This document shows, in pieces, positions 13,775 through 57,977 of a DNA stretch of 64,000 bases (position 1 is its first letter; every line of letters starts with the position of its first letter). The stretch spans positions 66,503 through 130,502 of the forward strand of contig DASZVL010000013.1 of NCBI GenBank assembly GCA_035547035.1, given 5' to 3'. Made by a program: the position numbers and the translations under genes. The notes beneath the pieces are model-generated. The model was not told where the DNA came from. It saw only the letters and a program-made list of their open reading frames with translations, and did not search any database. Source of the DNA: Mycobacteriales bacterium (GTDB lineage: Bacteria > Actinomycetota > Actinomycetes > JAFAQI01).

Positions 13775-15724
13775 TTAGCCGCGGATGACTTCCAAGACTT
13801 CGTCGGCGTACTGCTCGAGCTTCTTGGGGCCGACGCCCGACACCGCAGCGAGCTCGACGCGGTCCTGCGGTGCGCGCTCGGCGATCGCGACCAGCGTCTT
13901 GTTGTCGAACACCAGGAACGCCGCGATGCCGTCGTGTTGCGCCCGCTGCAGACGCCACTCGCGCAGTCGCGCGAACAGCGGATCGTCGGGCAGCTGCTGC
14001 TTCACCGACTTCGGTCGCTCGACGTACGCCGACGCCGGGCGGATGCCGTCGAGGAACCGCGACGGCTTGCGGCTGCGGCGGCCGCCGGGCGCGCGCGCGA
14101 GCGCCCAGGACAGGCTCAGATGACGGCGGGCGCGAGTGACGCCGACGTAGAGCAGGCGGCGTTCCTCCTCGACCTGCTCGGGAGTCGACGCGTGGGTGAT
14201 CGGCAGCGTGCCGTCGACCAGCCCGACGAGGTAGACCGCGTCCCACTCGAGACCCTTCGCGGCATGCAGCGAGGCGAGTGTCACGCCCTCGACGGGGGGC
14301 GCGTGCTGCGCATCCGCGCGGGCGACCAGCTCGGCGACGAACGCCGAGAGATCTGCATCGGGACGCGCGGCGGCGACCTCTTCGGCGAGACCGACGATCG
14401 CGCGCAGCGACTCCCACGCGTCGCGAAGCGCGCCGGCCCCGCTCGGCGGCGTGTCGGAGTAGCCCATCGCGGTCAGGACGTCAGCGACGACTGCCGGCAG
14501 CGAGTCACCCTCGGTCTCTGCTTCCGGCCGGGCCGCCCCGCGCAGGCGTGTCATCGCCTCGCGGACCTCGCGTCGCTCGAAGAACCGCTCGCCGCCGCGC
14601 ACGATGTACGGGATGCCGGCGTCGGCGAGCGCGGCTTCGTAGGCCTCCGACTGCGCGTTGACCCGGAACAGCACAGCCTGCTCGCGCAGCGGCACGCCGT
14701 CGTCGCGCAGCCGCGCAACCTGCCGCGCGACAGCCACCGCCTCCGCCGGCTCGTCGTCGTACGACGCGAACGTCGGTGCCGGGCCATCGCCCGCCTGCGC
14801 GCGCAGGCGCGACTCGGGCTCGACACGGTTGGCGAGGTCGACGACCTGGTTGGTCGAGCGGTAGTCACGGACCAGCCGGACGACGGCCGCGCCCGGGAAG
14901 CGGGAGCCGAATCGACGCAGGTACTGCGGCGATGCGCCGGTGAAGGAGTAGATGGTCTGGTTCGGGTCGCCGACGACGCACAAGTCGTCGCGGTCGCCGA
15001 GCCAGGCGTCGAGCAGCCGCTGTTGCAACGGGCTGACGTCCTGATACTCGTCGACCGTGAAGTTGCGGTAGCGCTCCCGCACCTCCCCGGCGACCGCCCG
15101 GTCGTTCTCGATCGCGGCGGCGGTCAGGAGCAGCAGGTCCTCGAAGTCGAGCTGGCCGCGGTCGGCGTTGACCTGCTCGTACGCCGCGAAGACCGCCTGC
15201 ACCGTCTCGAGCTCGAACGGCGGCTCCCGACCCGCGACCCGGGCCTGCCTCGCGTAGTCGGCCGGCTCGACGAGCGCCGCTTTCGCCCACTCGACCTCGC
15301 TCGCGAGGTCCCGTTGCTGCGGGGCGGCGACCGCCAGCTTGACCGACGCCGCCGCCGCGCGGATCGACGGCAGCTTGCTCTCGATCAGCGTGGGCCGTGC
15401 GCCGGAGGAGATCCGCGGCCAGAAGTAGGTGAGCTGGCGCAGCGCCGCGGAGTGGAAGGTGCGGGCCTGTACGCCGTCGGCGCCGAGCGCGCGCAACCGC
15501 GAGCGCAGCTCCCCCGCAGCGCGGGTGGTGAAGGTCACGGCGAGGACGTGCGTCGGTTTCACCTGACCGCCGAGCACCTGGTAGGCAATGCGGTGGGTGA
15601 CCGCGCGGGTCTTGCCGGTGCCGGCGCCGGCGAGGATGCAGACCGGTCCGCGCGGTGCCGTGACGGCCTCGCGCTGCTCGTCATCGAGACCCGCGAGCAC
15701 TCGCTCGAGTGGGTCGTCAGCCAC
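13775..15724 (-). CDS. uvrD2: UvrD2-like ATP-dependent DNA helicase with C-terminal HRDC domain
   Basis: Walker A AGAGTGKTRAVTHR, UvrD motifs, C-terminal HRDC-like LREWRLQRAQHDGIAAFLVFDNKTLVAIAER...VSGVGPKKLEQY; start trimmed to GTG 15724 preceded by GGAGGAC (ORF extends to 15883). Confidence 0.8.
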   Translation of the reverse strand: MADDPLERVLAGLDDEQREAVTAPRGPVCILAGAGTGKTRAVTHRIAYQVLGGQVKPTHVLAVTFTTRAAGELRSRLRALGADGVQARTFHSAALRQLTYFWPRISSGARPTLIESKLPSIRAAAASVKLAVAAPQQRDLASEVEWAKAALVEPADYARQARVAGREPPFELETVQAVFAAYEQVNADRGQLDFEDLLLLTAAAIENDRAVAGEVRERYRNFTVDEYQDVSPLQQRLLDAWLGDRDDLCVVGDPNQTIYSFTGASPQYLRRFGSRFPGAAVVRLVRDYRSTNQVVDLANRVEPESRLRAQAGDGPAPTFASYDDEPAEAVAVARQVARLRDDGVPLREQAVLFRVNAQSEAYEAALADAGIPYIVRGGERFFERREVREAMTRLRGAARPEAETEGDSLPAVVADVLTAMGYSDTPPSGAGALRDAWESLRAIVGLAEEVAAARPDADLSAFVAELVARADAQHAPPVEGVTLASLHAAKGLEWDAVYLVGLVDGTLPITHASTPEQVEEERRLLYVGVTRARRHLSLSWALARAPGGRRSRKPSRFLDGIRPASAYVERPKSVKQQLPDDPLFARLREWRLQRAQHDGIAAFLVFDNKTLVAIAERAPQDRVELAAVSGVGPKKLEQYADEVLEVIRG

Positions 15725-15882
15725 GTCCTCCGCCCCACCCACCACCCAAATCTCGTGCCGGCTCGCCGACCCCGTCGATGGCCATCCTCGCAGCCGCCTC
15801 GGACGCCCCCGCAGGGGAACATCCACGGAGGTGGAATGGTTGTTGAGGGTGCAACGACCAGGAACCCACTGAGGAGAGCGCA

Positions 15883-16128
15883 ATGTCGGGCCGGCTGACG
15901 ATGTACAGCACCAGCTGGTGCGGGGTTTGCGTGCGCCTGAAGCGTGGGCTGGAACGCGAGGGCGTCGAGTTCGACGAGGTCAACATCGAGGAGGACCCCG
16001 AGGCCGAGAAGTTCGTCCTCGAGACGAACAACGGCATGGCCCTGGTGCCGACGGTCGTGCTGCCGAACGGCGAGGTGCTGAGCAATCCACAGCTCCCCAC
16101 CCTCCTCGAGGCTCTCAGAGCCGCGTGA
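15883..16128 (+). CDS. glutaredoxin-like protein (NrdH/mycoredoxin type)
   Basis: 81 aa with CGVC active site (YSTSWCGVCVRLK), thioredoxin fold; divergent from uvrD2 as in mycobacteria. Confidence 0.8.
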   Translation: MSGRLTMYSTSWCGVCVRLKRGLEREGVEFDEVNIEEDPEAEKFVLETNNGMALVPTVVLPNGEVLSNPQLPTLLEALRAA

Positions 16129-16217: not shown

Positions 16218-17006
16218 GTGGCTGACATCGCGGGAATGCTCGCCGATCTTCGGGCCGAGTCCGACGACCTCGATGCCGTGATCGCCGGCGTCGGACCTGA
16301 CGACCTGTCGCGCCCGACGCCCGCGGAAGGCTGGTCGGTCTCCGACACGCTGGGCCACCTGTGGTTCTTCGATCGCGAAGGCCGTCGTGCCCTGGAGGAC
16401 CCCGAGGGCTTCGCCGCGAGCATCGAGGCCCTGATGGCAGACCCGGCGGGCTATATGGAGCAGCACGTCGCGACGATCCGCGGTCTCGGCGATGCGCTCG
16501 TCCCGTCGTGGCAGGAGGAGCGCCGCAACATCATCGAGGCCCTCCGGGAGATCGACCCGAAGACGCGGGTGCCTTGGTACGGCCCGCCGATGTCTCCCAT
16601 GTCGTTCGGTACGGCGCGGCTCATGGAGACGTGGGCGCACGGCCAGGACATCGCGGACGCACTTGGGGTGCAGCGGGAGCCCACCGACCGGCTTCGTCAC
16701 ATCGCCTACCTGGGCGTCATCACCCGCGGCTTCTCCTACGTCGTACGAGGTCAGGAAGCACCTGATGTCCCGGTGTTCGTCGCACTCACCGCACCCAGCG
16801 GCGCGGAGTGGACCTGGGGTGACCCGTCGGCGCCGGACTCGGTCCGCGGCCCCGCGCTCGACTTCTGCCTGCGGGTTACCCAACGCCGGATGCTCGAGGA
16901 CCTCCAACTGGTCGTGACCGGCGACGCCGCGACGGAGTGGATGTCGATCGCTCAGGCCTTCGCCGGCGGCGCGACACTGACCGACGCGACCCGCCGCGGC
17001 CTCTAA
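16218..17006 (+). CDS. mycothiol-dependent maleylpyruvate isomerase N-terminal domain / DinB-like protein (TIGR03083-like)
   Basis: N-terminal MADIAGMLADLRAESDDLDAVIAGV...WSVSDTLGHLWFF pattern of the actinobacterial TIGR03083 family. Confidence 0.65.
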   Translation: MADIAGMLADLRAESDDLDAVIAGVGPDDLSRPTPAEGWSVSDTLGHLWFFDREGRRALEDPEGFAASIEALMADPAGYMEQHVATIRGLGDALVPSWQEERRNIIEALREIDPKTRVPWYGPPMSPMSFGTARLMETWAHGQDIADALGVQREPTDRLRHIAYLGVITRGFSYVVRGQEAPDVPVFVALTAPSGAEWTWGDPSAPDSVRGPALDFCLRVTQRRMLEDLQLVVTGDAATEWMSIAQAFAGGATLTDATRRGL

Positions 17007-17009
17007 GGC

Positions 17010-17084
17010 GGAAGCAATGTGGCATTGCCTCCGTAAATCGCGCGCTAAGAGCCGAAAAACCGGAGGCAATGCCACATTGCTTCC
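17010..17084. repeat. intergenic palindromic element copy A (24-bp perfect inverted-repeat arms, 27-nt spacer)
   Basis: GGAAGCAATGTGGCATTGCCTCCG ...27 nt... CGGAGGCAATGCCACATTGCTTCC; same element at 35818-35910 and 50671-50746. Confidence 0.8.
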
Positions 17085-17118: not shown

Positions 17119-17649
17119 ATGCGATCGAAGAACCTCGGTGAGCTGTACAACCTGCCCCTCGTCGACTGGTCGACGATCACCGATCGGCTCGAGCGGGGCC
17201 TCACCGTCGCGCCGGGAACCGGTGGGCCCGATCACCACAGCCAGTGGCTGGTGACGACCAACGACGACGGCAGCCCGCATGTCAACGGCGTGGGCGCAGT
17301 CTGGCTCGACGGCACCTTCTGGTTCGTGACCGGCGCCACCAGCCGCAAAGGACGCAACCTCGCCCGCGACCCGCGATGCGCCATGAGTCTCGCCACGAGT
17401 GAGATGGAGCTCGTCGTCGAGGGCACCGCGCAGCGGGTCACCGACCATGCGACCGTCGCTCGCCTGTGCGCGCGGTACTCCGACGAGTGGCCGTGCAAGG
17501 TCGACGAGTCCGGCGAGGCGCTCACCGCTCCGTACAGTGCGCCTTCGGCCGGCCCTCCGCCGTGGGCGGTCTACCGCATGACCATCAGCAGCGCGCACGC
17601 GCTCACGATGGGAGACGGCGCCGGAGCAACCCGATGGGACTTCGACTAG
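17119..17649 (+). CDS. pyridoxamine 5'-phosphate oxidase-family (split-barrel, possibly F420/FMN-binding) protein
   Basis: 176 aa with GSPHVNGVGAVWLDGTFWFVTGATSRKGRNLARDPR motif of the PNPOx-like split-barrel family. Confidence 0.65.
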   Translation: MRSKNLGELYNLPLVDWSTITDRLERGLTVAPGTGGPDHHSQWLVTTNDDGSPHVNGVGAVWLDGTFWFVTGATSRKGRNLARDPRCAMSLATSEMELVVEGTAQRVTDHATVARLCARYSDEWPCKVDESGEALTAPYSAPSAGPPPWAVYRMTISSAHALTMGDGAGATRWDFD

Positions 17650-22348: not shown

Positions 22349-23206
22349 TCAGCCGTTGAGCCAGCCGGTGATCAACCAGTGAGCGATCGAGGTCGGGGGC
22401 GGCAGGATCGCATTCTCGGTGACCAGCTCGTCGCGGGTGAACCAGCGCACGTCTTCGAGCTCGTGGTCGCGGGTCGCGACGTCGCCCCCGACCACCCGCG
22501 CCTCGTAGCCGAGCATCAGCGACTGCGGGAACGGCCACGGCTGGCTCGCCTGGTAGGCCACCTCCTCGACGAGTACGCCGGTCTCCTCACGGACCTCGCG
22601 GTGCACCGCCTGCTCAGCGGACTCGCCCGCTTCGACGAAACCGGCAATCGTCGAGTAGCGGCCGCGTGGCCACGACGGCTGCCGGCCCAGCAGCGCGCGA
22701 TCTCCGCCGTCGTGCAGCAGGACGATGATCGCCGGATCCGTTCGCGGGAAGTGCTGCGAGCTGTCGACGTCGCACACCCGTGACCAGCCGGCCTGGGTGA
22801 TCCTCGTCTGGGCACCGCAGCGGGGACAGAACTGGTGTGAGGCGTGCCAGTTGCCCAGCGCGACCAACGTGACCAGCAAGCCCGCCTCGAGGTCTGACAA
22901 CGCGGCCCCGACCTCACGCAGACCCAGCAGCCGAGCGCCGAGCACGTTGCGCGGCGTACCGGTGGAGCCCCAGTAGGCGACCCCGTCGTCGCCGACGCCA
23001 AGGAGAACCCGCTCCCCCTCGCCGTCCCACGACGCGGGGCTGACGAACCGGAGCTCGGGACCGCCGTCCTCTGCGACCATCGCCCGGCCGTCGGCGTCGA
23101 GGACCAGCAGCTTGCCCGTCTCCCACGCCTCGGCAAGCCACTCGGCGTCGTCCCGCCGCTGTGCCGCACGATCGACCGCCGTGCGCGACAGCGCGGGAAT
23201 GCTCAC
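22349..23206 (-). CDS. nudC: NAD+ diphosphatase NudC (Nudix)
   Basis: Zn ribbon CPRCGAQT...C..D, Nudix box [23 protein letters not shown]; start ATG overlaps the adnB stop (ATGA). Confidence 0.9.
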   Translation of the reverse strand: MSIPALSRTAVDRAAQRRDDAEWLAEAWETGKLLVLDADGRAMVAEDGGPELRFVSPASWDGEGERVLLGVGDDGVAYWGSTGTPRNVLGARLLGLREVGAALSDLEAGLLVTLVALGNWHASHQFCPRCGAQTRITQAGWSRVCDVDSSQHFPRTDPAIIVLLHDGGDRALLGRQPSWPRGRYSTIAGFVEAGESAEQAVHREVREETGVLVEEVAYQASQPWPFPQSLMLGYEARVVGGDVATRDHELEDVRWFTRDELVTENAILPPPTSIAHWLITGWLNG

Positions 23207-26200
23207 GCAGTCACCGTAGAGCCCGACAGCAGGACGGCGAGCTCGTCGTGGCTCAGCAGGTGTCGCGGCCGCTCGACGTGGGAGTCGCGCACGTAGAGGA
23301 ATCCCGCGGTCACGACCTCCGGGGCGACCCCGGCCAGGTCAGCCCAGGCCAGCCGGTAGATCGACAGTTGCAGCGCCGCCGCTTCGAAGTCGGCGCCGGA
23401 CGGCTGCTTGCCGGTCTTGAAGTCGATGACGTCGAAGCCACCGCCGTCGGTCGGGTAGATCGCGTCGATGCGGCCGCGCAGGAGCCGCCCACCGACCGTC
23501 ATCTCGAACGGCGCCTCCACCTTGACCGGGATCCGCTGCGCCCAGCCGCTGGCGAGGAACTTCTCCTGCAGGCCGGTCAGCTCCGCGTCGCTGAGCTCCT
23601 CGTCGCCCGCGCCGGGAAGGTCGTCGGGGTCGAGCAGCGCGGCGCCGGCCACGCTGTAGAGACCCTCGACCCACTGATGGAACCGGGAGCCGCGCCGGGC
23701 CTGCGGCTGCGGCCGCGACGGCACCGGACGAGCGAGCGCCGCCGCGAACGCGTCCTCGTCGCGGGCGAGCGCCACCACCTGGCTCGTGGTGAGCCGCGCC
23801 GGGACCGCAACCGCGATGGTTCGCGAGCGGCGGCGATGGGCCTCGTCGATCAGCAGCGCCGTGTCGCGCCGCCAGTCAGCGGCGACGCCGGCGTCGTCGC
23901 CGGCCACTTCGACCATCGGCCGCAGCGCGCCGCGTGCCTGCTCGACGAGGCCGGCCGCCGCCCGCCGCCGCGCGGTCTCCGCCGGGTCCGGCAACGCCGG
24001 CCACGCGATGTCGATGACACCTGCCTCGACGATCGGGTTCGCGGTCGCGTCCTCAGGCATCTCGCACCACACGTCGACGCTGACGGTGGGCTCACCGAGC
24101 TCCGCGACCTCCGTGAGGAAAACCGACGTGGCGCACGGGTCCTTGCGCGTCGCGATCCAGGTGTACGCCGACAGCCACAGCCGGTGACGCGCGCGGGTGA
24201 AGGCGACGTAGGCGAGCCGCCGCTCCTCGTCGTCGGAGTCGGACTTGCACTCCTCCTTGAACGCCTTCTCGTCGGCGGTCGTCTCATACGCCCGCAGCAC
24301 CGGCAGATCCTCGCTGTCGCCACGGCAGGCGAACGGCAGCACGGCAGCGCCGGTGACCCAGCTCGACCGCGACAGACGCGTCGGGAAGACCTGGTCGACC
24401 AGTCCCGGCACCGCGACGACATCCCACTCGAGACCCTTCGCGGCATGGATCGTCATCAGCTTCACGGTGTCGGCGTCGGACACCGCACCGAGGTCGAGTC
24501 CGCGCTCGTTGTCCGCGGCTGCCTTGAGGTAGGCGAGGAACGCGACGAGATCGGCCTCCCCGTCGATGCCGTTGAACTGCGCGGTCACGTCGAGGAAGGC
24601 ATGGATGTTGGCGAGCCGGGCCGCGGCGAGGGCGGCATCGCCCGCTTCGACCTCGACGTCGAGACCTGATGCGGCGATCACCTCGGTGACCAGGTCGACG
24701 AGCGGCTGCCCGACGAGCCGCCGGAGCCGCCGGATCTCGGCGACGAAGCGCGCGAGCCGCTCGTACGCCTCCGGCGAGTACGCCGCGGGCGGGCCGGGCG
24801 ACTCGATCGCCTCGAGCAGGGACGGCGCCTCCACCGGGTCGGCCGTGCTGGTCGCCTGCGCCAGCACCTCGTTGAGTCCCTGCTTGACCGCCGGCTCGTC
24901 TGCGGGCGCCTCTTCCGCGCTGTCGATGACGAGACCATCGTCGGTTCCCGGTTGCTCGACCACGCGCAGCCGCGCGAGATGCCCGGCGCGCCGCCCGATC
25001 GCGGCCATGTCCCGCACGCCGATCCGCCAGCGCGGTCCGGTCAGCAACCGCACCGCCGATGCATTCGCGGTGCCGTCGGCGAGCAGTGTGAGCGTGGCGA
25101 CGATGTCACTGACCTCGGGCATCGCGAGCAGGCCGCCGAGTCCGACGACCTCGACCGGGATGTCGCGCAGCACCATCGCCTGGTGCAGCCGCGGGAAGTC
25201 GGTGCGACGCCGACCCAGGACCGCGATCTGGCCGGCCGGCGTACCGGCCTGCATCACCGCGACGATGCGCTGTGCGAGCCAGTCCGCCTCGTCGTGCGCC
25301 GTCGGCAGCCGGGCGATGCTCACCTCACCGGCGTCGTCGCGCCCTGCGACCGCCCGCAAGCCGGGCAGCACGAGGCGGGACCTGGCCTTGCGAACCAGCG
25401 AGTCGTGCAGCGGCGTCGCCACGACGTTCGCGACCGCGAGGATGCGCCCGTCGCAGCGGAAGCTCGTCATCAGCGGCATGGCCGCAACCTGCTTGCCTCG
25501 CACACCGAAGTGCTCCGAGAAGCGCGACAGGTTCGACGCGGACGCTCCGCGCCAGCCATAGATCGCCTGGTTCGCGTCACCGACCGCGGTGACCGCGTGC
25601 CCGTCGCCGAACAACGTCGAGAACAGCACGCGCTGAGCGACGCCGGTGTCCTGGTACTCGTCGAGCACCACCACCTGGTAGCGCTCCCGCTCGATCGTCG
25701 CGACCTCCGTGGACGCCTCGGCTACCGCACAGGCAAGCGCCACCTGGTCACCGAAGTCGATGAGGTCCAGCCGCGCCTTCTCCTCGCTGTAGAGCGAGAC
25801 CAGCGTGAGCAGCTCGTCGCGAGCGAGCGTCATCGAGACCATCTTCTTGGCCCACGCCAGCGGCTTCGCCAGCTCCTCGACGGCGCGGCGCACCGCTGCG
25901 TCGTGACGCCGGACGGCATCCGCCGTGCACAGGTGGTCTGACAGGTCGCCGGCGAGCGCGACAACCATCTCGGCGACGTACGGCGTGGTCCAGTCCAGGT
26001 TCGGGAACGGTCCGGGCGCGCGGCTCGCGACCCGCATCGCCAGCTGCCACTGCACGGCTTCGGTGAGCAGCGTGGCGCCGGGCTCGCGGCCGATCCGCAG
26101 CGCGTGGTCGCGCACGATCTGCGCGGCATAGGAGTTGTACGTCGCAACCGTCGGGAGGTCCTCGTGGTCCTCCACGTCGCTGCGCGCCGGGAGCGCCGCG

Positions 26201-26469
26201 AGACACAAGCGGACCCGCTCAGCCAGCTCAGCGGCTGCCTTGTTCGTGAAGGTCACGCCAAGGATCCGGTCCGCCGGCACCGCGTAGTGCGCAACCGCGT
26301 GGACGACGCGCGCCGCCATGACCATCGTCTTGCCCGAGCCCGCGCCTGCGATGACGAGCTGTGGCTCGAGCGGAGCGGTGATGACCGCCATCTGCTCGGC
26401 GGTGAAGTCCTTCCCGAGCAGGTCACGCAGGTAGGACCCGTCGGCCGTCGGCCGGATGCGCGCGCTCAC
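23203..26469 (-). CDS. adnB: AdnB-like helicase-nuclease subunit (UvrD-like motor plus RecB-like nuclease)
   Basis: Walker A IAGAGSGKTMVMAARVVH, UvrD helicase motifs, C-terminal PD-(D/E)XK nuclease GRIDAIY...DVIDFKTGK; start set to GTG 26469 overlapping the adnA stop (GTGA); six-frame ORF extends spuriously to 26709. Confidence 0.85.
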   Translation of the reverse strand: MSARIRPTADGSYLRDLLGKDFTAEQMAVITAPLEPQLVIAGAGSGKTMVMAARVVHAVAHYAVPADRILGVTFTNKAAAELAERVRLCLAALPARSDVEDHEDLPTVATYNSYAAQIVRDHALRIGREPGATLLTEAVQWQLAMRVASRAPGPFPNLDWTTPYVAEMVVALAGDLSDHLCTADAVRRHDAAVRRAVEELAKPLAWAKKMVSMTLARDELLTLVSLYSEEKARLDLIDFGDQVALACAVAEASTEVATIERERYQVVVLDEYQDTGVAQRVLFSTLFGDGHAVTAVGDANQAIYGWRGASASNLSRFSEHFGVRGKQVAAMPLMTSFRCDGRILAVANVVATPLHDSLVRKARSRLVLPGLRAVAGRDDAGEVSIARLPTAHDEADWLAQRIVAVMQAGTPAGQIAVLGRRRTDFPRLHQAMVLRDIPVEVVGLGGLLAMPEVSDIVATLTLLADGTANASAVRLLTGPRWRIGVRDMAAIGRRAGHLARLRVVEQPGTDDGLVIDSAEEAPADEPAVKQGLNEVLAQATSTADPVEAPSLLEAIESPGPPAAYSPEAYERLARFVAEIRRLRRLVGQPLVDLVTEVIAASGLDVEVEAGDAALAAARLANIHAFLDVTAQFNGIDGEADLVAFLAYLKAAADNERGLDLGAVSDADTVKLMTIHAAKGLEWDVVAVPGLVDQVFPTRLSRSSWVTGAAVLPFACRGDSEDLPVLRAYETTADEKAFKEECKSDSDDEERRLAYVAFTRARHRLWLSAYTWIATRKDPCATSVFLTEVAELGEPTVSVDVWCEMPEDATANPIVEAGVIDIAWPALPDPAETARRRAAAGLVEQARGALRPMVEVAGDDAGVAADWRRDTALLIDEAHRRRSRTIAVAVPARLTTSQVVALARDEDAFAAALARPVPSRPQPQARRGSRFHQWVEGLYSVAGAALLDPDDLPGAGDEELSDAELTGLQEKFLASGWAQRIPVKVEAPFEMTVGGRLLRGRIDAIYPTDGGGFDVIDFKTGKQPSGADFEAAALQLSIYRLAWADLAGVAPEVVTAGFLYVRDSHVERPRHLLSHDELAVLLSGSTVTA

Positions 26470-29400
26470 GACATGACCTGCGAGCCTTCGTCGGTTGCCG
26501 GGCACGAGGTCCGGAACCGGCAGTAGCCGCAGCCTTCGTTCGCTCTCGCCGGGAACGTCTCGGTGCGAATCCCGCCGGCGATGCCGTCCACGAGGTCGTC
26601 GACCCACTCGTCGCCTGCCTCGAGCGGGTCCTGTCGCTGCACCTTCACGGCGCCGCGAACCGACTTTCGCAGCTGCACCAGCTCCGCGCCGCCCGGGGTC
26701 GTCGACCAATCCTTGAACGCGCCGTGGCGGGTGACCAGCTGGTAGACGCCGAGCTGCGCGTCGGTCTTCACCCGCTCGTCGCTCGGAGGGTTGCGGCTCG
26801 TCTTGAGGTCGACGACGACGAGCCCGCCGTCGGCGTCGAGCTCGATGCGGTCGGCGCGACCGCGTACGACGACGTCGTCACCAACGGCGACCTCGAAGCC
26901 GACCTCCGCACTCGCGCACTCACGGTCGTTGAGGGCGTGCCAGGCGAGGAACCGCTCCAGCGCCGCGCGCGCCTCGACGTGGTCGCGCACCGCCTGCCAC
27001 TTCGCGTCGTACGGGAGCAGGTGCCAGACCTCGTCGAGGCGCTCGACCAGCACATCGATGTCAGCGGGGAGCTCGCCGACGACCACCGCCTCGGCGAGCG
27101 CATGAACGATCGACCCGAACCCCTGCGCGGTCGACGTCGACTCCGCCGCCTTGGCTTCGCGGTCGAGAAACCAGGCCCGCGGGCATCGGTCGAAAGCCGC
27201 GACGGCCGACGCGGACAGCTCGATCGGGCGGTCCGGGTCACGCACGGGTGCGGCGCCGGGAGTCGGCTCCGGCAGTCCCCACCAATGGTCCGGCGAGGCG
27301 GTCGGGACCAGCGGCGTGCCGTCCTCGTCGACCGCATCGGCAAGGTCGGCAAGACACTCTGCGGCCACCTGGCGGAGGCCCTCGCTGACGTCCGGGTCAC
27401 GCAAGGCCCGTCTCAGCCGCGCGACGAGAGACCCGACCGACAAGATCCCGGCCGTCGGGGTCACGGCGGCAGGGAGCACGACGCCGGTCTCCGTCAGCAA
27501 CCGCGAAGGGCGCTCTGCGAGGTCGTCGGTGCCCGACGTGGCGGTGAGCACGAGCCGCTTGCGCGCGCGGGTGACCGCGACATAGAAGAGGCGGCGCTCG
27601 TCGGTCAGCAGCGCGCCCGCGTCCGGCCCGGCCCCTGGCGAGTCCAACGCCAGGCCGTCGGCATCGAGCAGGCTGCCGCGCCGGCGCAGGTCGGGCCAGA
27701 CCGCCTCTTGCACGCCGGCCACGACGACGAGGTCCCACTCCAGGCCCTTGGACCGGTGAGCGGTCAGCAGGCGCACCGCGCCGAGCGCGCCGGCCTTCTC
27801 TTCGTACGGCGACGCCGGGATCTCTTGCGATGACACCTCGGCGAGGAGCGCACCCACCGTGGCCCTCGGCTGCTTGTCCTCCAATCGGCCCGCGAGCTCG
27901 AACAGAGCGAGGACTGCGTCGAGGTCGCGGTCAGCCGCCCGCCCCTCGGCGTCAGCCGACATCGCAGCGGCGCCGAGCCGGCGCGCCCAGTCCGAGCCGT
28001 CCCACAACGCCCACAGCACCTCTGCCGGGCTGCCGCCGCGTCGCTGCACCCCTGTGGCGGCGTCGAGCAAGCGCGTCAGTCTCACGACGGGCGCCGCGAT
28101 CCAGTCCTCGATCAGCGACGTCGCGGACGGGTCCTCCACCGCCTCGGCGATCAGCCTCGGCGACGGACGAGCGAGTCCGTCGTTCTCGATCCGGTCGAGC
28201 TCGCGCAACCGGCGACCCAGAGCGCGCAGCTGCGACGGCGTCGCGCCGGCCAGCGGGGACGTGAGCAGCATGCGCGCGATGTCCGGCGTCATCGGCTGCG
28301 CCGGGCGGACCTCTCGACCGACTGGTGCGCGCTCGCCGCGGGTCCGCTCATCGACGATCTCCAGTGCGCGCAACAGCGGTGCCACGGCGGGATCACGGGA
28401 CAGCGGAAGCTCGTCGGCGGCGACCGACACCGGGATGCCGGCCGACACCAGCGCCCGGCGAACCGTCGGGATGCTGCGGACACCGGAGCGGACCAGCACC
28501 GCCATCCGCGACCACGCGACGCCGTCGACCAGATGCGCACGGCGCAACAGGTCCGCGATGCCGGTGACCTCGGCCGCCACCGAGGCGTACAGCCGGATCT
28601 CGGGTGCCGCGTCGTCCGTCCCGGCGGCGCGCAGGTTGCGATGTGCTTCGCGCTTCGAGGTCAGCCGGCCGAGGGGGAGCTTCGTCGCGACCGCGCGCGA
28701 CAGCTTGACGAGCTCAGGACCCGAACGCCGGCAAACCTGGAGCTCGGTGACCGCAGCGGGCCGTCCGTCAGCCGTGCGGAACCGGTCCGGGAACTCGATG
28801 ATCCCGGTGACGTCGGCGCCGCGGAAGCCGTAGATGGACTGGTCCGGATCGCCGACCGCGACCAGCAGTCGTCCGTCGCCGGCCAGCATCCGCAGCAGCT
28901 GTTCCTGCGACGGGTCGGTGTCCTGGTACTCGTCGACGTACACCGCCTTGTACTTCTGGCAGACCGAGCTCGCGGATCCGGCGAGCAGGTCGAGGGCACG
29001 GTCGATGACACCCGAGTAGTCGACCTCGTTGCGAAGCGAGAGGACCTCGAGGTACTCCGCGAGAAAGTCGCCCGCGGCGACCCACGCGGGTCGGCCATGC
29101 GCCCGGCCGCGGGCGCGCAACGCAGCCGGGTCCAGGCCGCGCTCGCCGGCCCGGTCGAGCACATCGCAGACCTCTTTCGCGAACCCGCGCAGCCGCAGCG
29201 CCGGAGCCAGCTCGGCCGGCCATCTGGTCTTGCCCTCGCCGGCCGCGTCACCTTCGAGCAGCTCGCGCACCCGCAGTTCCCGCTCGGCCCCGGACAGCAG
29301 CCGCGGCAAGGTGTCACCGGGCGCGACGCCGTAGCTGCGCAGCAGCGAGTAGCAGTAGCTGTGAAAGGTCGCTGCGGACGGCTCGACGACCGTGCGGCCG

Positions 29401-29693
29401 AGCCGCCCGGCGATCCGGCTCCGCAGCTCGTCGGCGGCCTTCCGGCTGAACGTGAGGACGAGCACCTCGTCCGGCGCTGCGCCGCGTCGTACCCGCTCCA
29501 CTACGGACTCGACGAGCGTCGTCGTCTTGCCGGTGCCGGGTCCAGCCAGGACGAGCAGCGGACCCTGGTCGTGATCGACGACGCGCTGCTGAGTGGGGTC
29601 GAGCTCGGGAGCCGCGATCGGATCGACCGGTGGACGGACCAGTCGGTACGTCACGGCGGGCGGGCTCACGACGGCATCACAGCACGCCGGTAC
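26466..29693 (-). CDS. adnA: AdnA-like helicase-nuclease subunit (UvrD-like motor plus RecB-like nuclease with Cys cluster)
   Basis: Walker A LAGPGTGKTTTLVESVV, RecB-like nuclease GRADRIE...VVDLKTSR, C-terminal CGYCRFRTSC Cys cluster; start uncertain (GTG 29693 or 29654), ORF extends to 29870. Confidence 0.8.
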   Translation of the reverse strand, partial: VPACCDAVVSPPAVTYRLVRPPVDPIAAPELDPTQQRVVDHDQGPLLVLAGPGTGKTTTLVESVVERVRRGAAPDEVLVLTFSRKAADELRSRIAGRLGRTVVEPSAATFHSYCYSLLRSYGVAPGDTLPRLLSGAERELRVRELLEGDAAGEGKTRWPAELAPALRLRGFAKEVCDVLDRAGERGLDPAALRARGRAHGRPAWVAAGDFLAEYLEVLSLRNEVDYSGVIDRALDLLAGSASSVCQKYKAVYVDEYQDTDPSQEQLLRMLAGDGRLLVAVGDPDQSIYGFRGADVTGIIEFPDRFRTADGRPAAVTELQVCRRSGPELVKLSRAVATKLPLGRLTSKREAHRNLRAAGTDDAAPEIRLYASVAAEVTGIADLLRRAHLVDGVAWSRMAVLVRSGVRSIPTVRRALVSAGIPVSVAADELPLSRDPAVAPLLRALEIVDERTRGERAPVGREVRPAQPMTPDIARMLLTSPLAGATPSQLRALGRRLRELDRIENDGLARPSPRLIAEAVEDPSATSLIEDWIAAPVVRLTRLLDAATGVQRRGGSPAEVLWALWDGSDWARRLGAAAMSADAEGRAADRDLDAVLALFELAGRLEDKQPRATVGALLAEVSSQEIPASPYEEKAGALGAVRLLTAHRSKGLEWDLVVVAGVQEAVWPDLRRRGSLLDADGLALDSPGAGPDAGALLTDERRLFYVAVTRARKRLVLTATSGTDDLAERPSRLLTETGVVLPAAVTPTAGILSVGSLVARLRRALRDPDVSEGLRQVAAECLADLADAVDEDGTPLVPTASPDHWWGLPEPTPGAAPVRDPDRPIELSASAVAAFDRCPRAWFLDREAKAAESTSTAQGFGSIVHALAEAVVVGELPADIDVLVERLDEVWHLLPYDAKWQAVRDHVEARAALERFLAWHALNDRECASAEVGFEVAVGDDVVVRGRADRIELDADGGLVVVDLKTSRNPPSDERVKTDAQLGVYQLVTRHGAFKDWSTTPGGAELVQLRKSVRGAVKVQRQDPLEAGDEWVDDLVDGIAGGIRTETFPARANEGCGYCRFRTSCPATDEGSQVMS

Positions 29694-29703
29694 GACGGCA
29701 CAG

Positions 29704-30867
29704 TCATCTGTGTACGGCGAAGACGCTGACCTCGCGCAGCGAGGTGAAGAAGCCGCCGGTGTCGGTCTCGACGCGGACCGCGTCCACGCGCGTACCCGGC
29801 AGTGACGCGACCAGTACGTCGTCGGCGCTGCCGAACGGCTCCGTCGCGACGCGGGTGAACCGCCCGCCACCAGGACTGATCGACACTGTGCAGCTCAGAC
29901 ATCCGCGTACCACGAGCAAGGCGGCCGGTACCGGACGACGCAGGGTCACAGTGACATCGCGGTGGTCGTGCTGGGCAGACCCTGCGCACGGCCCGGCTGC
30001 GCATCGCGGGTCGTCAACCGGTTGCCAGTCCGAGTCGAGGACTCCGTCCGTCAGCCCGCACTTCGGCTGCCGGATCTGCTGACCGCGGCTGTCGGTGACG
30101 CTGCACCCAGCGCCTCGACTCGCGGGCACGTCCGTCCCTCGCAGCTCGAGACTGCTGCTGAACAACGCGTCCCGTCCGTGCAGCCGGCCGGACTGCGCCG
30201 TCGTCAGCAACAGGTGTTCGTCCTCGACGACGCGGGCGTCGTACCCGTTGGTGACAGTGAGGGCGTGGCCGTCAGCGACCGGTGGTGTGCCGGTCTCGGT
30301 CTCGAGTGAGGCTTCGAAACGCGACGGGCGATAACGGAGTGGAAGCGGCGGTGGCACGACGAAGCGACGGTTTCCGAGTGCCCGAACATGAGGCGCGCCC
30401 GCGGCCAACCGGATCCGCGCTTGCGTGGACCCGCGCCGCCAGGGCAGGACGACACTCGTCGCCACACGCGCCGGTCCACGAGCCGCGGCGGCGGTGATGT
30501 TGTAGTCGTCGTGCTCCGCGTTGCGTCCCGGCAGCGACAGCGCGAACGACCCATCTCGAGCCGTGAAGCCGCTGTCATGCGGAGCCGAGCAGCCGAGGAG
30601 GCAGTAGAAGCCGACTGTCGAGAAGGCTCCGATCGCGCGAACTGCCTGCTCTCCGCTCGACAGCGCGACTGAGACCACCACAGTCGCACCGGCGACCGGA
30701 TGGCCAGCCGTGTCGGTCACGAACCCGGTCACGGCACGGCCCTGCACCGGTTGCGCGTGCGGCGGCACCGACGGCGGTGTGGTTGCCGGAATCTGGCCCG
30801 CGGTTCGCGGCTGGGCGCATCCCGCCGCGAGCAGAAGCGCGGCAATCGAGGCGAGTCGCCACCGCAT
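29704..30867 (-). CDS. putative lipoprotein, function unknown
   Basis: Signal peptide with lipobox MRWRLASIAALLLAAGC; 387 aa Ser/Thr/Gly-rich, several Cys pairs. Confidence 0.5.
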   Translation of the reverse strand: MRWRLASIAALLLAAGCAQPRTAGQIPATTPPSVPPHAQPVQGRAVTGFVTDTAGHPVAGATVVVSVALSSGEQAVRAIGAFSTVGFYCLLGCSAPHDSGFTARDGSFALSLPGRNAEHDDYNITAAAARGPARVATSVVLPWRRGSTQARIRLAAGAPHVRALGNRRFVVPPPLPLRYRPSRFEASLETETGTPPVADGHALTVTNGYDARVVEDEHLLLTTAQSGRLHGRDALFSSSLELRGTDVPASRGAGCSVTDSRGQQIRQPKCGLTDGVLDSDWQPVDDPRCAAGPCAGSAQHDHRDVTVTLRRPVPAALLVVRGCLSCTVSISPGGGRFTRVATEPFGSADDVLVASLPGTRVDAVRVETDTGGFFTSLREVSVFAVHR

Positions 30868-33419: not shown

Positions 33420-35000
33420 CTACCAGGAGAACCAGCGACGGCGCCGCTCGGGCACGACGGTCGCGGGCGCGTCAGGTGAGGCCGGCATCGGCGGGGTTCC
33501 CCATACGGCTTCCTGGTCGAACGGCACTTCCACGCCGGACACCGGCGCCGGCCCTGGCGCGCCGCCCTCGTCAGCCGGGTGGCCGCCGTACGGCGGCTCG
33601 GGCACCCATCGCGCGGCGCGTTGCTCGGCATCGTCGACCGCGGGCCGCTCGATGGACGTCGTGTCGGCGTCATCGTCATCGCCGGCGTCATCGTCGTCGT
33701 CAAGACCGGCCCGGCTGAAGTCGATCTGCGCGACGTCGGCGGCGCCCTCGTCGTCCCCGTCGTCGCCGTACCTGTCGTCGACCTCGTCAGCGCGGGCATC
33801 GTCGCCGTGCCGGCTGTCGCCCTCGTCGTGGTGCGCGGCGGCGATGGGGGCCGGCGGCTCGGGCTGCGGCGGAGCAGGGGCATCGACGAGTGCGACTGCG
33901 CCCGCCCGGCCAAGCAGCGTCTGCGCTAGCGCGAAGACGGCGTCATCCACGTGGGTCGTGATCCGCTGCTCGAGGGCGTTGATCGCGGCGTCGAGGTCGC
34001 CGCTCGGCGCCGGCGACGCCTCGCCGCCGGCAGGCGGGGCGGCCGCCAGCGCGGCGAGCTGGTCGGACAGGCCGGAGAGCTGCTCGCTGATCGGCGACAG
34101 GTCGACCGGCTCGCTCCCGCCGTCGCTGCTCGCGCGGGCCGCGACCACGCCGGCCACGTCCGAGCGCAGCGTCTGCAGCTCGTCGGACAGCTCCGCGAGC
34201 TGCCTGGTCACCGGGGCCAGATCGACCGGGGCACCGGCCGGAGCCGAGGCGGAGCTTTCGCGGGCGGCGACGACGCCGGCCACGTCCGACCGCAGCGACT
34301 GGATCTCACCGGCGAGGGCGCTGAGCTTGGGCTCGAGGCCGGCAAGAGCGCCCTCGTCGATCGTGGCCGGCTGGGCGAGCGCGGCCTGAGTGCCCGCCGC
34401 AAGCGACTCGAGCTTGCCGTGAAGCGACTGCAGGGAGGCGGCGTGGTCGTTGTGCGCCTGCGCGAGGCGCTGCGCGAGCGGGCCCAGCATTCCCTCGATG
34501 GCGGACAGCCGCTCGCTGACCTGGGCGTCCGTCGGGCGCGCCAGGGCCTGTTCGATCCCGCCCAGGCGCTGGCCGAGCGAGCCCTCGATGCCGCCGAGGC
34601 GCTGTTGGAGGCCGTTGAGACTCTCCTGCACGGCCGAGACCTGCTGTCCGTACGACGGCAGCGCCTGCATACCCGTGGTGAGCACGCCGATCGTCTCCGC
34701 CTGGGACCGGACGTGGGCGTCGATCGCACCGAGTGCGCCGCGGGTGTCGGCAAGCTCCTCGCCTCGCTGCGCGACCATGCGGGCGACCCCGTCGAGCCGC
34801 TCGGCCAGGAACCGGACGGCCTCCCGCAGCTCGGCCGTGACCGAGTTGATCGCGTCAGGGTTCTGCGCGGGCTGCTCAGCGCGGAGGGCGGCGACCTCCT
34901 GCCCCAGCCGGATGACCTGGTTGCGAATGTCGACCAAGGCCGACATCGGGTCCGGCGCGGGCACCGGAGCACCCGTGGCGGGGTCAGTGGTCACCGACAT
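33420..35000 (-). CDS. acidic coiled-coil protein with internal tandem repeats (unknown function)
   Basis: Long heptad-like Leu/Ala/Gln-rich region; direct repeat L[AS]ELSDELQTLRSDVAGVVAAR[EA]SS twice; poly-Asp tract DDDDDAGDDDDAD; Pro-rich tail. Start ATG 35000 (or GTG 34994 with better SD spacing); ORF extends to 35231. Confidence 0.6.
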   Translation of the reverse strand: MSVTTDPATGAPVPAPDPMSALVDIRNQVIRLGQEVAALRAEQPAQNPDAINSVTAELREAVRFLAERLDGVARMVAQRGEELADTRGALGAIDAHVRSQAETIGVLTTGMQALPSYGQQVSAVQESLNGLQQRLGGIEGSLGQRLGGIEQALARPTDAQVSERLSAIEGMLGPLAQRLAQAHNDHAASLQSLHGKLESLAAGTQAALAQPATIDEGALAGLEPKLSALAGEIQSLRSDVAGVVAARESSASAPAGAPVDLAPVTRQLAELSDELQTLRSDVAGVVAARASSDGGSEPVDLSPISEQLSGLSDQLAALAAAPPAGGEASPAPSGDLDAAINALEQRITTHVDDAVFALAQTLLGRAGAVALVDAPAPPQPEPPAPIAAAHHDEGDSRHGDDARADEVDDRYGDDGDDEGAADVAQIDFSRAGLDDDDDAGDDDDADTTSIERPAVDDAEQRAARWVPEPPYGGHPADEGGAPGPAPVSGVEVPFDQEAVWGTPPMPASPDAPATVVPERRRRWFSW

Positions 35001-35125
35001 CTCCTCGATCGCGGCTGCTTGGCAAGAAGTATCTCTGTTCTCGCCGACTAACGCAGCCTTCTCCTCCGCAGCATCTGTAACTGGCGCTACGCCCCGATAT
35101 CGCGGATCGTAGTCGGGCGGGCGCG

Positions 35126-35142
35126 CCAGGTATACGACCTGG
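35126..35142. promoter_or_regulatory. candidate TetR operator palindrome in the divergent intergenic region
   Basis: CCAGGTATACGACCTGG (6-bp perfect arms) 44 bp upstream of the TetR start, between divergent genes. Confidence 0.3.
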
Positions 35143-35185
35143 CTGGCCCCGACCCGGGTGGCGAGTCGATACGCTTCGGACCACC

Positions 35186-35821
35186 GTGACCCAAAGCCCT
35201 GGCGCCACCGAGCGCAGCCGCAGGCTGCCACGCTCGGCCCGGCGGGAACAGCTGCTCGGCGCTGCGCAGGAGGTTTTCGTTGCGCACGGCTACCACGCGG
35301 CCGCCATGGACGACATCGCCGAGCGTGCCGGAGTCAGCAAGCCGGTCCTCTATCAGCACTTTCCCAGCAAGCTCGAGCTCTACCTTGCGCTGCTCGAGCT
35401 CCACGCCGACGCGCTGGAGCGCCAGGTTCGCCACGCGTTGGAGAGCACCAGCGACAACCACGACCGGGTGTTCCGCTGCGTCCAGGTCTACTTCGACTTC
35501 GTCGACGAGCCGGGCGGTGCGTTCCGGCTGGTCTTCGAGTCCGACCTGCGCAACGAGCCGATGGTCCGCGAGCGCGTCGACCGCGCCCTGCAACGTTCGG
35601 TCGAGGCGATCGCCGACACGATCGCGAGGGACACCGGTCTGGACCGGGAGCAGGCTGAGCTGCTGTCGTGCGGACTGGCGGGCGCAGCGGAGATCAGCGC
35701 CCGCTGGTGGCTCGACGCGGGCGGTCGGGTCGACAAGCAACGGGCGATCGAGCTGATCCAGGCCCTCGCCTGGCGAGGGATCAGCGGCTACCCCCTCGCC
35801 GCCTTCCCGCCGCTCTCCTAG
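35186..35821 (+). CDS. TetR/AcrR-family transcriptional regulator
   Basis: HTH AAMDDIAERAGVSKPVLYQHFPSKLELYLALLE; 211 aa; GTG start. Confidence 0.85.
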   Translation: MTQSPGATERSRRLPRSARREQLLGAAQEVFVAHGYHAAAMDDIAERAGVSKPVLYQHFPSKLELYLALLELHADALERQVRHALESTSDNHDRVFRCVQVYFDFVDEPGGAFRLVFESDLRNEPMVRERVDRALQRSVEAIADTIARDTGLDREQAELLSCGLAGAAEISARWWLDAGGRVDKQRAIELIQALAWRGISGYPLAAFPPLS

Positions 35822-35910
35822 AAGCAATGTGGCCTAGAAGCAATGTGGCATTGCGTTCGGTTTTCGGCCCGAAACAAGGCCGATCGCGGATGCAATGTGG
35901 CATTGCTTCC
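35818..35910. repeat. intergenic palindromic element copy B (with partial extra half-site)
   Basis: TAGAAGCAATGTGGCC + TAGAAGCAATGTGGCATTGCG ...37 nt... GCAATGTGGCATTGCTTCC; overlaps the TetR stop codon. Confidence 0.75.
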
Positions 35911-35963
35911 GGGGGATGGAGCGCCGTTCACCCTCGGCTGAGCGGTTTCAGCCGACACGATTC

Positions 35964-36285: not shown

Positions 36286-36331
36286 CTGAACAGCACACTG
36301 GCCCGCGGCCGGCCTGTTTCAGCAGACTCCT

Positions 36332-39228: not shown

Positions 39229-39352
39229 CTCGCCGCTCCGCCCAGCAATGCGACATCGCTGGGCGTCTTCCGCCGGGAACACGGCGTGTCCCGCCAGCAA
39301 TGTCACATCGCCGGCGCGAGGAGCCGGGAGCCCGTGAGTTGCGCTCTTCGCT

Positions 39353-43221: not shown

Positions 43222-43224
43222 TAC

Positions 43225-48099: not shown

Positions 48100-48236
48100 C
48101 CTTCTTCAGCAACTTGGCCAACCGCTGGAGCATCCCACCCAACGATCCGGTGCTATCGCCCCTTCGTTGAGTTCGAGGTAGCACACAGAGGTGCGGGGGT
48201 GGAGCGCTCCAGCAACGTGACATTGCTGGGCAAGGT

Positions 48237-49937: not shown

Positions 49938-50672
49938 GTGACCGAGCGCAGCGAGGCCGAGATCGCGCTTGCCAACTGGCAGTACGTCGAGGCGTGGCTC
50001 GAGGAGGACGCGCCCGCCACACAGGCACGCCCGAAGGGCCAGAGTCTGGGTGCGGTGCCGGTCGGCGCCGGTGGTGGCGCGATGCTGCGGTTCCTGGCAG
50101 CCAGCATCAACGCCCGCGCCGTCGTCGAGATCGGCACCGGAGCGGGCGTGTCCGGCACCTGGCTGCTACGCGGCATGGCGCCGGACGGCCTGCTGACATC
50201 GATCGACATCGAGCCCGAGCACCAGCGCGTCGCGAAGCAGACCTTCTTGTCGGCGGGCTTTCAGCTGTCCCGGTTCCGGCTGATCGCCGGCAACGCACTC
50301 GACGTACTGCCGCGCCTGACCGACGGCGCCTACGACATGGTGTTCGGCGACGCCAGCAAGGAGGAGTACGTCGGCTACTTCGACGAGGCGATCCGACTGC
50401 TCCGGCCAGGCGGCGTCGTCGCGTTCGACAACGCGCTGTGGCACGGTCGGGTCGCCGATCTCGGCAACCGCGACGCACCGACCGTCGCGGTGCGGGAGCT
50501 GCTCAAGCGAGTCCGCGACGACGAGCGCCTCATCCCGCTCCTCGTCCCGAACGGCGACGGGCTGCTCGCCGCGATCGTCCGCGGCGAGCCGGGCAACGCC
50601 GAGCCGGCGATCACGTCAGACCCAAAGAGCGCAGTTACAGAAGACCCGGCCACAGGCTCGCTCACCTTGTGA
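49938..50672 (+). CDS. class I SAM-dependent O-methyltransferase (caffeoyl-CoA OMT-like)
   Basis: VVEIGTGAGVSGTWLL SAM motif, DMVFGDASKEEY, VAFDNALW; GTG start at 49938, 45 bp from the divergent htrA start; six-frame ORF extends spuriously upstream. Confidence 0.7.
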   Translation: MTERSEAEIALANWQYVEAWLEEDAPATQARPKGQSLGAVPVGAGGGAMLRFLAASINARAVVEIGTGAGVSGTWLLRGMAPDGLLTSIDIEPEHQRVAKQTFLSAGFQLSRFRLIAGNALDVLPRLTDGAYDMVFGDASKEEYVGYFDEAIRLLRPGGVVAFDNALWHGRVADLGNRDAPTVAVRELLKRVRDDERLIPLLVPNGDGLLAAIVRGEPGNAEPAITSDPKSAVTEDPATGSLTL

Positions 50673-50746
50673 AAGCAATGTGGCATCGCATCCGCTTTTA
50701 GGCGCTGAAACAGCGAAAAAACGGAGTCAATGCCACATTGCTTCGG
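50671..50746. repeat. intergenic palindromic element copy C
   Basis: GAAAGCAATGTGGCATCGCATCCG ...27 nt... CGGAGTCAATGCCACATTGCTTCGG between the convergent OMT and glgC genes. Confidence 0.8.
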
Positions 50747-57786: not shown

Positions 57787-57977
57787 CGTGTTGCGCTCCT
57801 CCCGGAAAGCCTTCATCTGATCGGCTCTTCGTCGTAACCCCAGCGCACCGGTGCCCTGAAGCCCAGCAATGCGAATCCACCCAAATGGGCGGATATCCCA
57901 ACCGGGACATCATACGGGCGCGCGTCGCGCCACGCTGGGAAGGTTGGGCGGTTAGTTGTCACTGTCTCCGGCCGCCG

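Follow-up and report, generated by a model that had tools for sequence, protein, structure and literature searches.

A 64,000-nucleotide stretch of contig DASZVL010000013.1 from a Mycobacteriales bacterium (hereafter the window, actinobacterial chromosomal DNA of high G+C content, about 69%) contains a family of intergenic hairpin elements that, in related genomes, bracket a gene for a winged-helix/Vsr-like nuclease. The repeat unit is a 15-bp palindrome, GCAATG-N3-CATTGC, which occurs mostly as pairs exactly 52 bp apart start-to-start (doublets). The elements have a fixed anatomy and placement, are conserved at orthologous sites and have recently multiplied; the repeats flanking the bracketed gene co-vary with the paralogue, and the encoded protein has a recognizable fold. 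We favor the reading that the elements are lineage-specific hairpin doublets resembling repetitive extragenic palindromes (REPs) and their hairpin-forming doublets (REPINs), and that they are the cognate DNA sites of this nuclease, a reading to which we give about an even chance of being right. Few non-coding features of bacterial genomes are as common as REP-like repeats. To our knowledge, the only kind of cognate REP enzyme known is the HUH transposase RAYT (REP-associated tyrosine transposase), found mostly in Proteobacteria, and we know of no explanation for the origin and persistence of conserved-sequence hairpins in high-G+C Gram-positives.

At up to two mismatches, the palindrome has nine sites in the window compared with 1.04 expected, a count that none of 100 dinucleotide shuffles reached. 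The window holds four palindrome pairs, copies A (17014/17066), B (35840/35892), D (39245/39297) and C (50675/50727), and one solo site, E (48212). To define the family more widely we scanned the paired pattern across 185,579 species genomes and obtained 89 stretches, nearly all in uncultured Frankiales, Mycobacteriales or Frankiaceae metagenome-assembled genomes (MAGs) and almost always with a match length of 67 nt, equivalent to a spacing of 52. Six matches in unrelated phyla had other lengths and are probably due to chance. The MAGs are fragmentary, so element copy numbers are lower bounds. Neighboring palindromes were 52 bp apart in 80 of 183 distances, with 13 more at 51 or 53 bp and minor peaks at 30-32 bp (28 cases), 20 bp and 84 bp. 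Spacings of 20, 30-32, 52 and 84 bp correspond to about 2, 3, 5 and 8 helical turns of 10.4 bp, which suggests that the sites are kept on one face of the duplex.

Strong conservation is limited to the 15-mer, with the consensus aGCAATG-TGR/YCA-CATTGCt; the flank logo shows only an A at -1 and a T at +1 (58%), with no GTAG/CGTC-type tetranucleotide head beside the palindrome. Centers are TGG/CCA in 57% of palindromes and TGA/TCA in 20%, and among 78 unique 52-bp doublets the two centers are arranged TGR...YCA in 41 and YCA...TGR in 4. A single long hairpin was the minimum-energy fold in 77 of these 78 doublets. Spacers follow a loose consensus (c-N5-GAWWTC, about 12 nt, then GAAATCRC-N3-gg) and are more self-complementary than shuffled sequences (mean z = -0.94, p = 1e-10). 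Beyond the palindromes, complementarity locked to position is weak and extends no more than about 4 bp on the outer side and 1 bp on the inner side; the register of the inner stem varies, and only the arms are recovered by RNAalifold.

The window is 78-91% identical to pieces of four MAGs, and copies A, C and D keep the same intergenic positions in related MAGs: copy A is present at the orthologous site in three sampled loci (L039, L006 and L075) and copy C in two (L015 and L026), and the ortholog of copy D (in L054) has perfect palindromes. Across orthologous sites, in genomes with roughly 80-86% identity, half-sites were identical at 232 of 240 positions (97%) and spacers at 148 of 370 (40%), and the spacing was always 52, with no indels. 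Therefore the sequence and the spacing are maintained, and not merely the hairpin. One MAG, DASZOU, contains at least six dispersed copies of about 122 bp with 89-97% identity, sharp borders and unrelated flanks, which represent recent multiplication of the element. Another, JAICXJ, carries tandem arrays of the 52-bp unit as well as tight clusters.

At two loci (L061 and L079), two doublets lie about 1.05 kb apart and the interval consists of one open reading frame (ORF) of 318-332 aa. The two genes, from different species and at non-orthologous chromosomal loci, share 59% identity, and each has a doublet on both sides. A database search returned 105 close relatives of the bracketed protein, all annotated 'hypothetical' and all from metagenomes or MAGs, and doublets bracket the gene in every close relative that we examined (L090, L093, L095 and L102). 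The upstream doublet begins 153-155 bp before the ATG, a distance that is fixed across paralogues, and the downstream doublet overlaps the stop codon or follows it by at most 16 bp. Each side of the gene carries a complete doublet rather than one half, and the enzyme is no known transposase. For many members of the family, the only known source is a contig of 1.0-2.5 kb that scarcely exceeds the gene in length; such short contigs are the expected assembler output for a gene flanked by repeats that are found elsewhere in the genome.

The flanking repeat changes with the gene. Paralogue P0082 has the variant CGGATGTGCCATCCG on both sides and comes from the same MAG as the canonical P0001; P0039 has AACGATGTGRCAGCGTT on both sides, on a contig that also carries a canonical doublet; and P0050 has the variant GC(A/G)ATGTGACAT(C/T)GC in three copies on each side. 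A tandemly repeated palindrome, ACGGCG-TCA/TGA-CGCCGT, flanks members that are 56-58% identical to P0001 (L113 992-1068 and L114 1284-1393). This palindrome keeps the 6-3-6 layout, with the half-site switched and the center retained. In an independent metagenome sample, 21 of 64 members had an upstream/downstream repeat score of at least 40, higher than any internal control, and these 21 are nearly all of the members that are at least 39% identical to P0001. Bracketing is typical of a large subfamily and is not universal.

The protein of about 318 aa itself matches no Pfam or NCBIfam model; fold and profile matches identify an AbiEi-type winged helix and a Vsr/DUF559-type PD-(D/E)xK nuclease domain. 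Using an AlphaFold2 model (predicted local distance difference test score, pLDDT, 94.3) as the Foldseek query, we matched the N-terminal two-thirds to the AbiEi antitoxin 6y8q (3e-6) and to Rv2827c 1zel (7e-5), and the C-terminal part to the catalytic domain of the homing endonuclease I-Bth0305I 3r3p (template modeling, TM, score 0.75) and also to TT1808 and Vsr 1vsr. The family profile matches 3hrl at 4e-6 and 3r3p at 0.04, two structures that have been grouped in the Vsr/DUF559 clade (PMC3424549). Distant members match the Pfam families AbiEi_4, DUF559 and MTES_1575, with AbiEi_4 found in 11 of 41 aligned members. All of these 41 sequences have E196 and H247, and D229, E240 and R263 are each kept in 90% or more; judged from sequence, the conserved acidic and histidine residues of the nuclease core speak for catalysis rather than binding alone. 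Both AbiEi and Rv2827c are autoregulators that bind inverted repeats in the promoters of their own genes (PMC7319586). Given that the bracketed gene encodes a winged-helix/Vsr-like nuclease, we take the elements to be cognate sites of that protein.

This partnership of element and protein rests on genomic association, from which we infer binding, cleavage, who mobilizes whom and effects on transcripts. By analogy with REPs and RAYT, the winged helix would bind the palindromes, with the sites in helical phase, and the nuclease domain would nick or cut at or near them. Repair or copying from other copies would then spread the elements and keep the palindromes uniform. Copies would survive where they are least harmful, right after stop codons and especially between convergent genes, and the hairpin of about 80 nt would probably also help to end or stabilize transcripts on both strands. 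A protein that recognizes double-stranded DNA would account for the conserved sequence, exact spacing and helical phase. Copying or homogenizing of the elements by the nuclease would accord with its conserved core and with the recent copies, and the survival of the elements at gene ends is consistent with their being tolerated there and possibly with their serving to end transcripts in both directions. More tentatively, and with rather less than an even chance of being correct, we propose that Actinomycetota harbor a previously unrecognized repeat-protein partnership in which a dedicated winged-helix/Vsr-like nuclease recognizes, homogenizes and multiplies hairpins, as a counterpart of RAYT built on a different catalytic fold.

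Several observations weigh against the elements being sites of a nuclease that multiplies them. No target-site duplication was definable, and no consistent duplication was seen, at the borders of the copies of about 122 bp in DASZOU. The variant palindrome of P0082 was not seen dispersed in the DNA examined from the same MAG, and therefore a bracketing repeat need not proliferate. Most members that are 34-38% identical to P0001 have no flank repeat within -260/+200 bp, and the window itself encodes no member of the bracketed-protein family. The locus with the order histidine kinase (HK), bracketed gene and DJ-1 is orthologous in three species, so that gene copy has been inherited vertically; the gene is mostly vertically inherited and not visibly jumping. 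The order element-gene-element is also expected if a module of gene plus element had inserted into a pre-existing element.

We called genes with a codon-usage gene caller trained on the element loci. Among 73 element-bearing intergenic regions, 37 were convergent, 31 co-directional and 5 divergent, compared with a background of 21/58/21%; convergent regions were in excess (37/73, binomial p = 1e-8) and divergent regions in deficit (5/73, binomial p = 0.0014). The median distance to the stop codon was 18-27 bp. In the window, copies A and B lie between co-directional genes, and C, D and E between convergent ones. The elements showed no orientation bias relative to the upstream gene (A-rich strand 14:16, more stable strand 19:15), and a strand-specific RNA function, to which an early count of 7:1 had pointed, was rejected when that count disappeared with better gene calls. 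In the 18 kb from 34000 to 52000, a T-rich tail follows only the first palindrome of copy B; the remaining terminator-like sites there are unrelated to the elements, and their count is below the shuffle mean. By the criterion of a stem-loop directly followed by a U-tract, the elements do not qualify as intrinsic terminators.

These results bear on a preliminary description of the window, made from its sequence without database searches. It had placed the repeats between genes and mostly at gene 3' ends, which the gene calls and Pfam matches confirm, and had proposed a genome-wide pattern search, which shows the family to be dispersed over many intergenic regions of related genomes and not restricted to the window. 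Its reading of the repeats as REP-like or as resembling miniature inverted-repeat transposable elements (MITEs) is well supported by the intergenic dispersal in relatives, the convergent enrichment, the long hairpin and the recent multiplication in one genome. Its alternative, a site for a DNA-binding protein, also gains support: sequence and spacing are conserved, and genomic association supplies a candidate cognate protein. A function as terminator or mRNA stabilizer, which it had attached to the REP/MITE-like reading, is not established, with a T-run after only one palindrome and no strand bias relative to the upstream gene. The operator of a single regulon, which it had named as an outcome that would speak against a REP or MITE, is rejected, given functionally unrelated flanking genes (we found no functional link among the genes neighboring the elements) and few divergent regions.

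The main rival to our reading is that the nuclease gene is a parasite of the elements, a gene-plus-element module or homing-type nuclease gene that inserts into pre-existing REP-like hairpins spread by other means. We consider this unlikely. It has in its favor that in L090 and L095 the gene sits within a convergent pair of HK and DJ-1 (or major facilitator superfamily, MFS) genes, and that without the gene and one doublet the usual order of stop, element, stop remains; the nuclease domain resembles a homing endonuclease, and the many members on contigs of 1-2.5 kb are as expected of repeat-flanked insertions. There is also precedent in insertion sequence (IS) elements that target REPs, such as IS1397 and ISKpn1. 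Yet MAGs contain 1-3 diverged paralogues rather than many identical copies despite dozens of potential targets, and the distance from the upstream doublet to the ATG holds at 153-155 bp across paralogues. The variant palindromes of P0082 match on both sides and no free copies were seen, and therefore the flanks look like part of the gene's own unit. Alternatively, a host protein that acts structurally or in regulation (insulating convergent gene ends or controlling topology there, for instance) might use the doublets as chromosomal binding sites, with the nuclease-like protein merely autoregulating and nothing mobile today. The upkeep of sequence and exact spacing at orthologous sites around a randomized spacer, spacings of 20, 31, 52 and 84 bp that fit whole helical turns, the lack of strand bias, and autoregulation of AbiEi and Rv2827c through inverted repeats (PMC7319586) would all suit such sites. 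We nevertheless judge this improbable in view of the six copies of about 122 bp with 89-97% identity and unrelated flanks in one genome, the tandem arrays of the whole 52-bp unit and the conserved acidic and histidine residues of the nuclease core.

Structure alone might also account for the elements, as bidirectional terminators or 3' RNA-stabilizing hairpins that arose by duplication without a dedicated protein, their link to the gene being incidental (insulation by terminators). Their position right after stop codons, the convergent enrichment, the very stable hairpins (-36 to -57 kcal/mol) and the excess self-complementarity of the spacers (mean z = -0.94, p = 1e-10) are what such an explanation predicts, but structure requires neither 97% identity nor an exact 52-bp spacing around a spacer that is 40% identical. 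Single substitutions in the palindromes are uncompensated, one arm only has a T-run in the 18 kb scanned (34000-52000), and different palindromes flank different paralogues in the same genome, unlike generic host terminators; we regard this explanation as quite improbable. Classical REP/REPIN elements mobilized by a RAYT, an IS200/IS605-type HUH tyrosine transposase encoded elsewhere in the genome, would likewise take the form of short palindromes in inverted doublets, dispersed between genes and with long vertical persistence. This possibility seems very remote: no ORF like IS200 or RAYT was found in 720 kb around 89 element loci (a weak negative), no GTAG/CGTC-type head adjoins the palindrome, and the gene bracketed by repeats, the hallmark by which RAYTs are paired with REPs, encodes a different fold.

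The pairing of hairpin doublets with a nuclease that we favor resembles and departs from several known systems. Like REP/REPIN and RAYT in Proteobacteria, it has a short palindrome arranged in inverted doublets with the fold of a long hairpin, intergenic copies at gene 3' ends, in dozens or greater numbers and with long vertical persistence, and a single- or low-copy gene that is bracketed by the same repeats and with which the repeat co-diversifies. It differs in its host, an actinomycete lineage (Actinomycetota), in having no GTAG/CGTC head, in the strict 52-bp and helical-phase spacings that point to recognition of double-stranded DNA, and in the bracketed protein, which joins an AbiEi-type winged helix to a Vsr/DUF559-type nuclease and is not an HUH/Y1 transposase (Y1_Tnp). 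With the type IV antitoxins AbiEi and Rv2827c it shares the N-terminal two-thirds of the model (matches to 6y8q and 1zel), and those proteins bind inverted-repeat pairs beside their own genes (PMC7319586). Unlike in those systems, no AbiEii/DUF1814 toxin gene adjoins (neighbors are histidine kinase, DJ-1, MFS, PerM, sucD, PSP1, holB and other genes), the C-terminal domain has a nuclease fold rather than being an antitoxicity domain, and the putative cognate repeats are also dispersed around the chromosome. The C-terminal domain aligns the protein with the clade of Vsr, DUF559 and the EDxHD enzyme I-Bth0305I through 3hrl (profile) and 3r3p (profile and fold), which form one clade in PMC3424549. 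Unlike members of that clade, it is free-standing, neither in an intron or intein nor beside a cytosine methyltransferase, is fused to an AbiEi-type DNA-binding module and is flanked by hairpin repeats.

Escherichia coli clusters of REPs and bacterial interspersed mosaic elements (BIMEs) and the TRIT-type terminator-like hairpins of Mycobacterium tuberculosis are likewise conserved-sequence hairpins that lie after genes, often convergent ones, as singles, doublets or arrays. The elements described here differ from both in their unrelated sequences, with no Rfam match, and in having a candidate cognate protein of a new type. In the literature that we searched we found no description of the palindrome or of a link between DUF559/AbiEi_4 proteins and repeats, although a prior description elsewhere is possible; papers containing short strings from the Rhodococcus ruber motif described below are unrelated. 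If the pairing is functional, such repeats would have a second molecular means of spread and maintenance, independent of the first, a very large 'hypothetical' AbiEi_4/DUF559 protein family would gain a role, and cultured, tractable Rhodococcus would offer a testable system. If it is not, what remains is a new REP-like family of an ordinary kind, confined to one uncultured clade.

The individual sites in the window are as follows.

Copy A, 17010..17084: palindromes 17014-17028 (center TGG) and 17066-17080 (center CCA), 52 bp apart.
Copy B, 35819..35911: partial half-site 35819-35834; palindromes 35840-35854 and 35892-35906, 52 bp apart.
Copy D, 39242..39314: palindromes GCAATGCGACATCGC at 39245-39259 and GCAATGTCACATCGC at 39297-39311, 52 bp apart.
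Solo palindrome E, 48209..48229: CCAGCAACGTGACATTGCTGG, core 48212-48226.
Copy C, 50671..50746: palindromes GCAATGTGGCATCGC at 50675-50689 and TCAATGCCACATTGC at 50727-50741, 52 bp apart.
Isolated half-site, 57864..57875: CCAGCAATGCGA, in the gap between two large Big_1-repeat genes.

Direct look-up in the window showed that the sequences named in the preliminary description exist where it had placed them, and several of its interpretations changed. It had ascribed perfect 24-bp arms to each of copies A, B and C; these are present in copy A only (GGAAGCAATGTGGCATTGCCTCCG / CGGAGGCAATGCCACATTGCTTCC), and the arms of copy B (AGAAGCAATGTGGCATTGCGTTCG / CGGATGCAATGTGGCATTGCTTCC, with TGG at both centers) and copy C (GAAAGCAATGTGGCATCGCATCCG / CGGAGTCAATGCCACATTGCTTCG) carry substitutions. 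Nor are the three copies near-identical, as it had held: the spacers of copies A and C agree at about half of positions in a position-by-position count, and copy B is inverted relative to A and C. The constant feature of A, B and C is the start-to-start distance of 52 bp, which had been overlooked. Two supposed degenerate relatives, at 39242-39262 and 39290-39310, are real sites that together form a fourth full element with 52-bp spacing, copy D. A relative reported at 48215-48235 is a genuine palindrome, solo, whose actual place is 48212-48226. At 57866 there is a half-site only, CCAGCAATGCGAATCC; the half-site at 57864..57875 does not match the full palindrome even at up to three mismatches and is probably what is left of a decayed site or else a chance match. 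Copy B does have the extra half-site (35819-35834), as described, and the TetR gene ends on the TAG within it.

Copy A lies between an MDMPI_N/DinB gene (16218-17006, + strand), whose stop is 7 bp before it, and a PNPOx-like gene (17119-17649, + strand) 38 bp on. Copy B is flanked by the TetR gene (35186-35821, + strand) and a DUF3107 gene (35964-36215, + strand). Copy D lies 16 bp past the stop of a gene at 38785-39228 (+ strand), and the next gene is on the - strand, a convergent context. Site E separates convergent mrp/apbC-like (46960-48099, + strand) and tatB-like (48237-48566, - strand) genes, and copy C occupies the whole gap between a convergent O-methyltransferase gene (stop 50670-50672) and glgC (50751-52085, - strand). 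Folding energies of the window copies range from -36 to -57 kcal/mol (z = -4 to -11), with copy A at -56.4 kcal/mol (z = -11) and copy B at -52.4 kcal/mol on the + strand and -36.1 kcal/mol on the - strand; single substitutions in the window palindromes occur without a compensating change. At the position orthologous to site E (window 48100-48240), L015 4130-4260 has another short repeat, in four copies, that shares the core (ATGTGACAT / ATGTCACAT), and a third MAG (L026) has no repeat there.

Other origins and partners for the elements were considered and rejected. The hexamer GCAATG occurs outside the elements nine times against 7.1 expected, which leaves no restriction-site-like avoidance. 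No known RNA family or tRNA-derived element was recognized: no Rfam covariance model matched the window at gathering score and no tRNA was found in it; a phage origin finds no match in a phage collection or in viral contigs. The TetR gene beside copy B and another among ten sites in JAICXJ prompted us to consider TetR as the binding protein. The two TetRs are unrelated, other elements have no homologue nearby, and these genomes abound in TetR genes. The JAICXJ contig (L018, JAICXJ010000061.1) has a five-unit tandem array of the 52-bp unit (1364-1575) at the 3' end of the TetR-family gene (1627-2286, - strand) and five single palindromes spaced 30/20/32/30 bp (2275-2401) directly upstream of the start of that gene. 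Its coverage is 74x, compared with about 22x for most contigs of the MAG.

The wider protein family comprises 7,772 clusters at E <= 1e-30 and is common in cultured Nocardiaceae, where it is always annotated as hypothetical. Members with 30-39% identity are bracketed by unrelated hairpins of 44-70 nt, one of them being a DUF559 protein of a cultured Catellatospora. In Rhodococcus ruber, the hairpins that bracket a homologue (WP_029540190.1, 28.7% identity) are 54 nt long and still contain the AATGTCACATT core. The R. ruber hairpin occurs 5.5 times in a 74-kb record, with four of its six sites immediately past stop codons in gaps between convergent genes.

R. ruber dispersed hairpin, gGCCGAATGTCACAT...ATGTGACATTCGGcc: NZ_CP145323.1 positions 16264, 19466, 26961, 55446, 56585 and 57195.

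The gene content of this record (L110/L111), filed as 'plasmid pmega_4' of R. ruber MSA14, suggests a piece of chromosome deposited under a plasmid name: it carries pks13, fadD32, emb-type arabinosyltransferases, dprE1/E2-type genes and serS. The record looks chromosomal and was the one match in 72,556 plasmid records, and we rejected plasmid carriage of the protein family. Just downstream of another distant member, P0096, and its flank repeat, L100 4198-4318 contains a 20-bp tandem repeat, GGACGGTGCCGTGGGTCGTG, in five units.

Near copy A, the - strand of the window encodes a UvrD-type helicase with an HRDC domain (13775-15883) and a UvrD-helicase/PD-(D/E)xK nuclease gene pair resembling AdnAB (23203-29870). 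At the far end of the window, 54280-63998 holds three large paralogous ORFs on the - strand (1178, 1178 and at least 747 aa) with Big_1 Ig-like repeats and long internal DNA repeats, a region with a marked AT skew of about -0.2.

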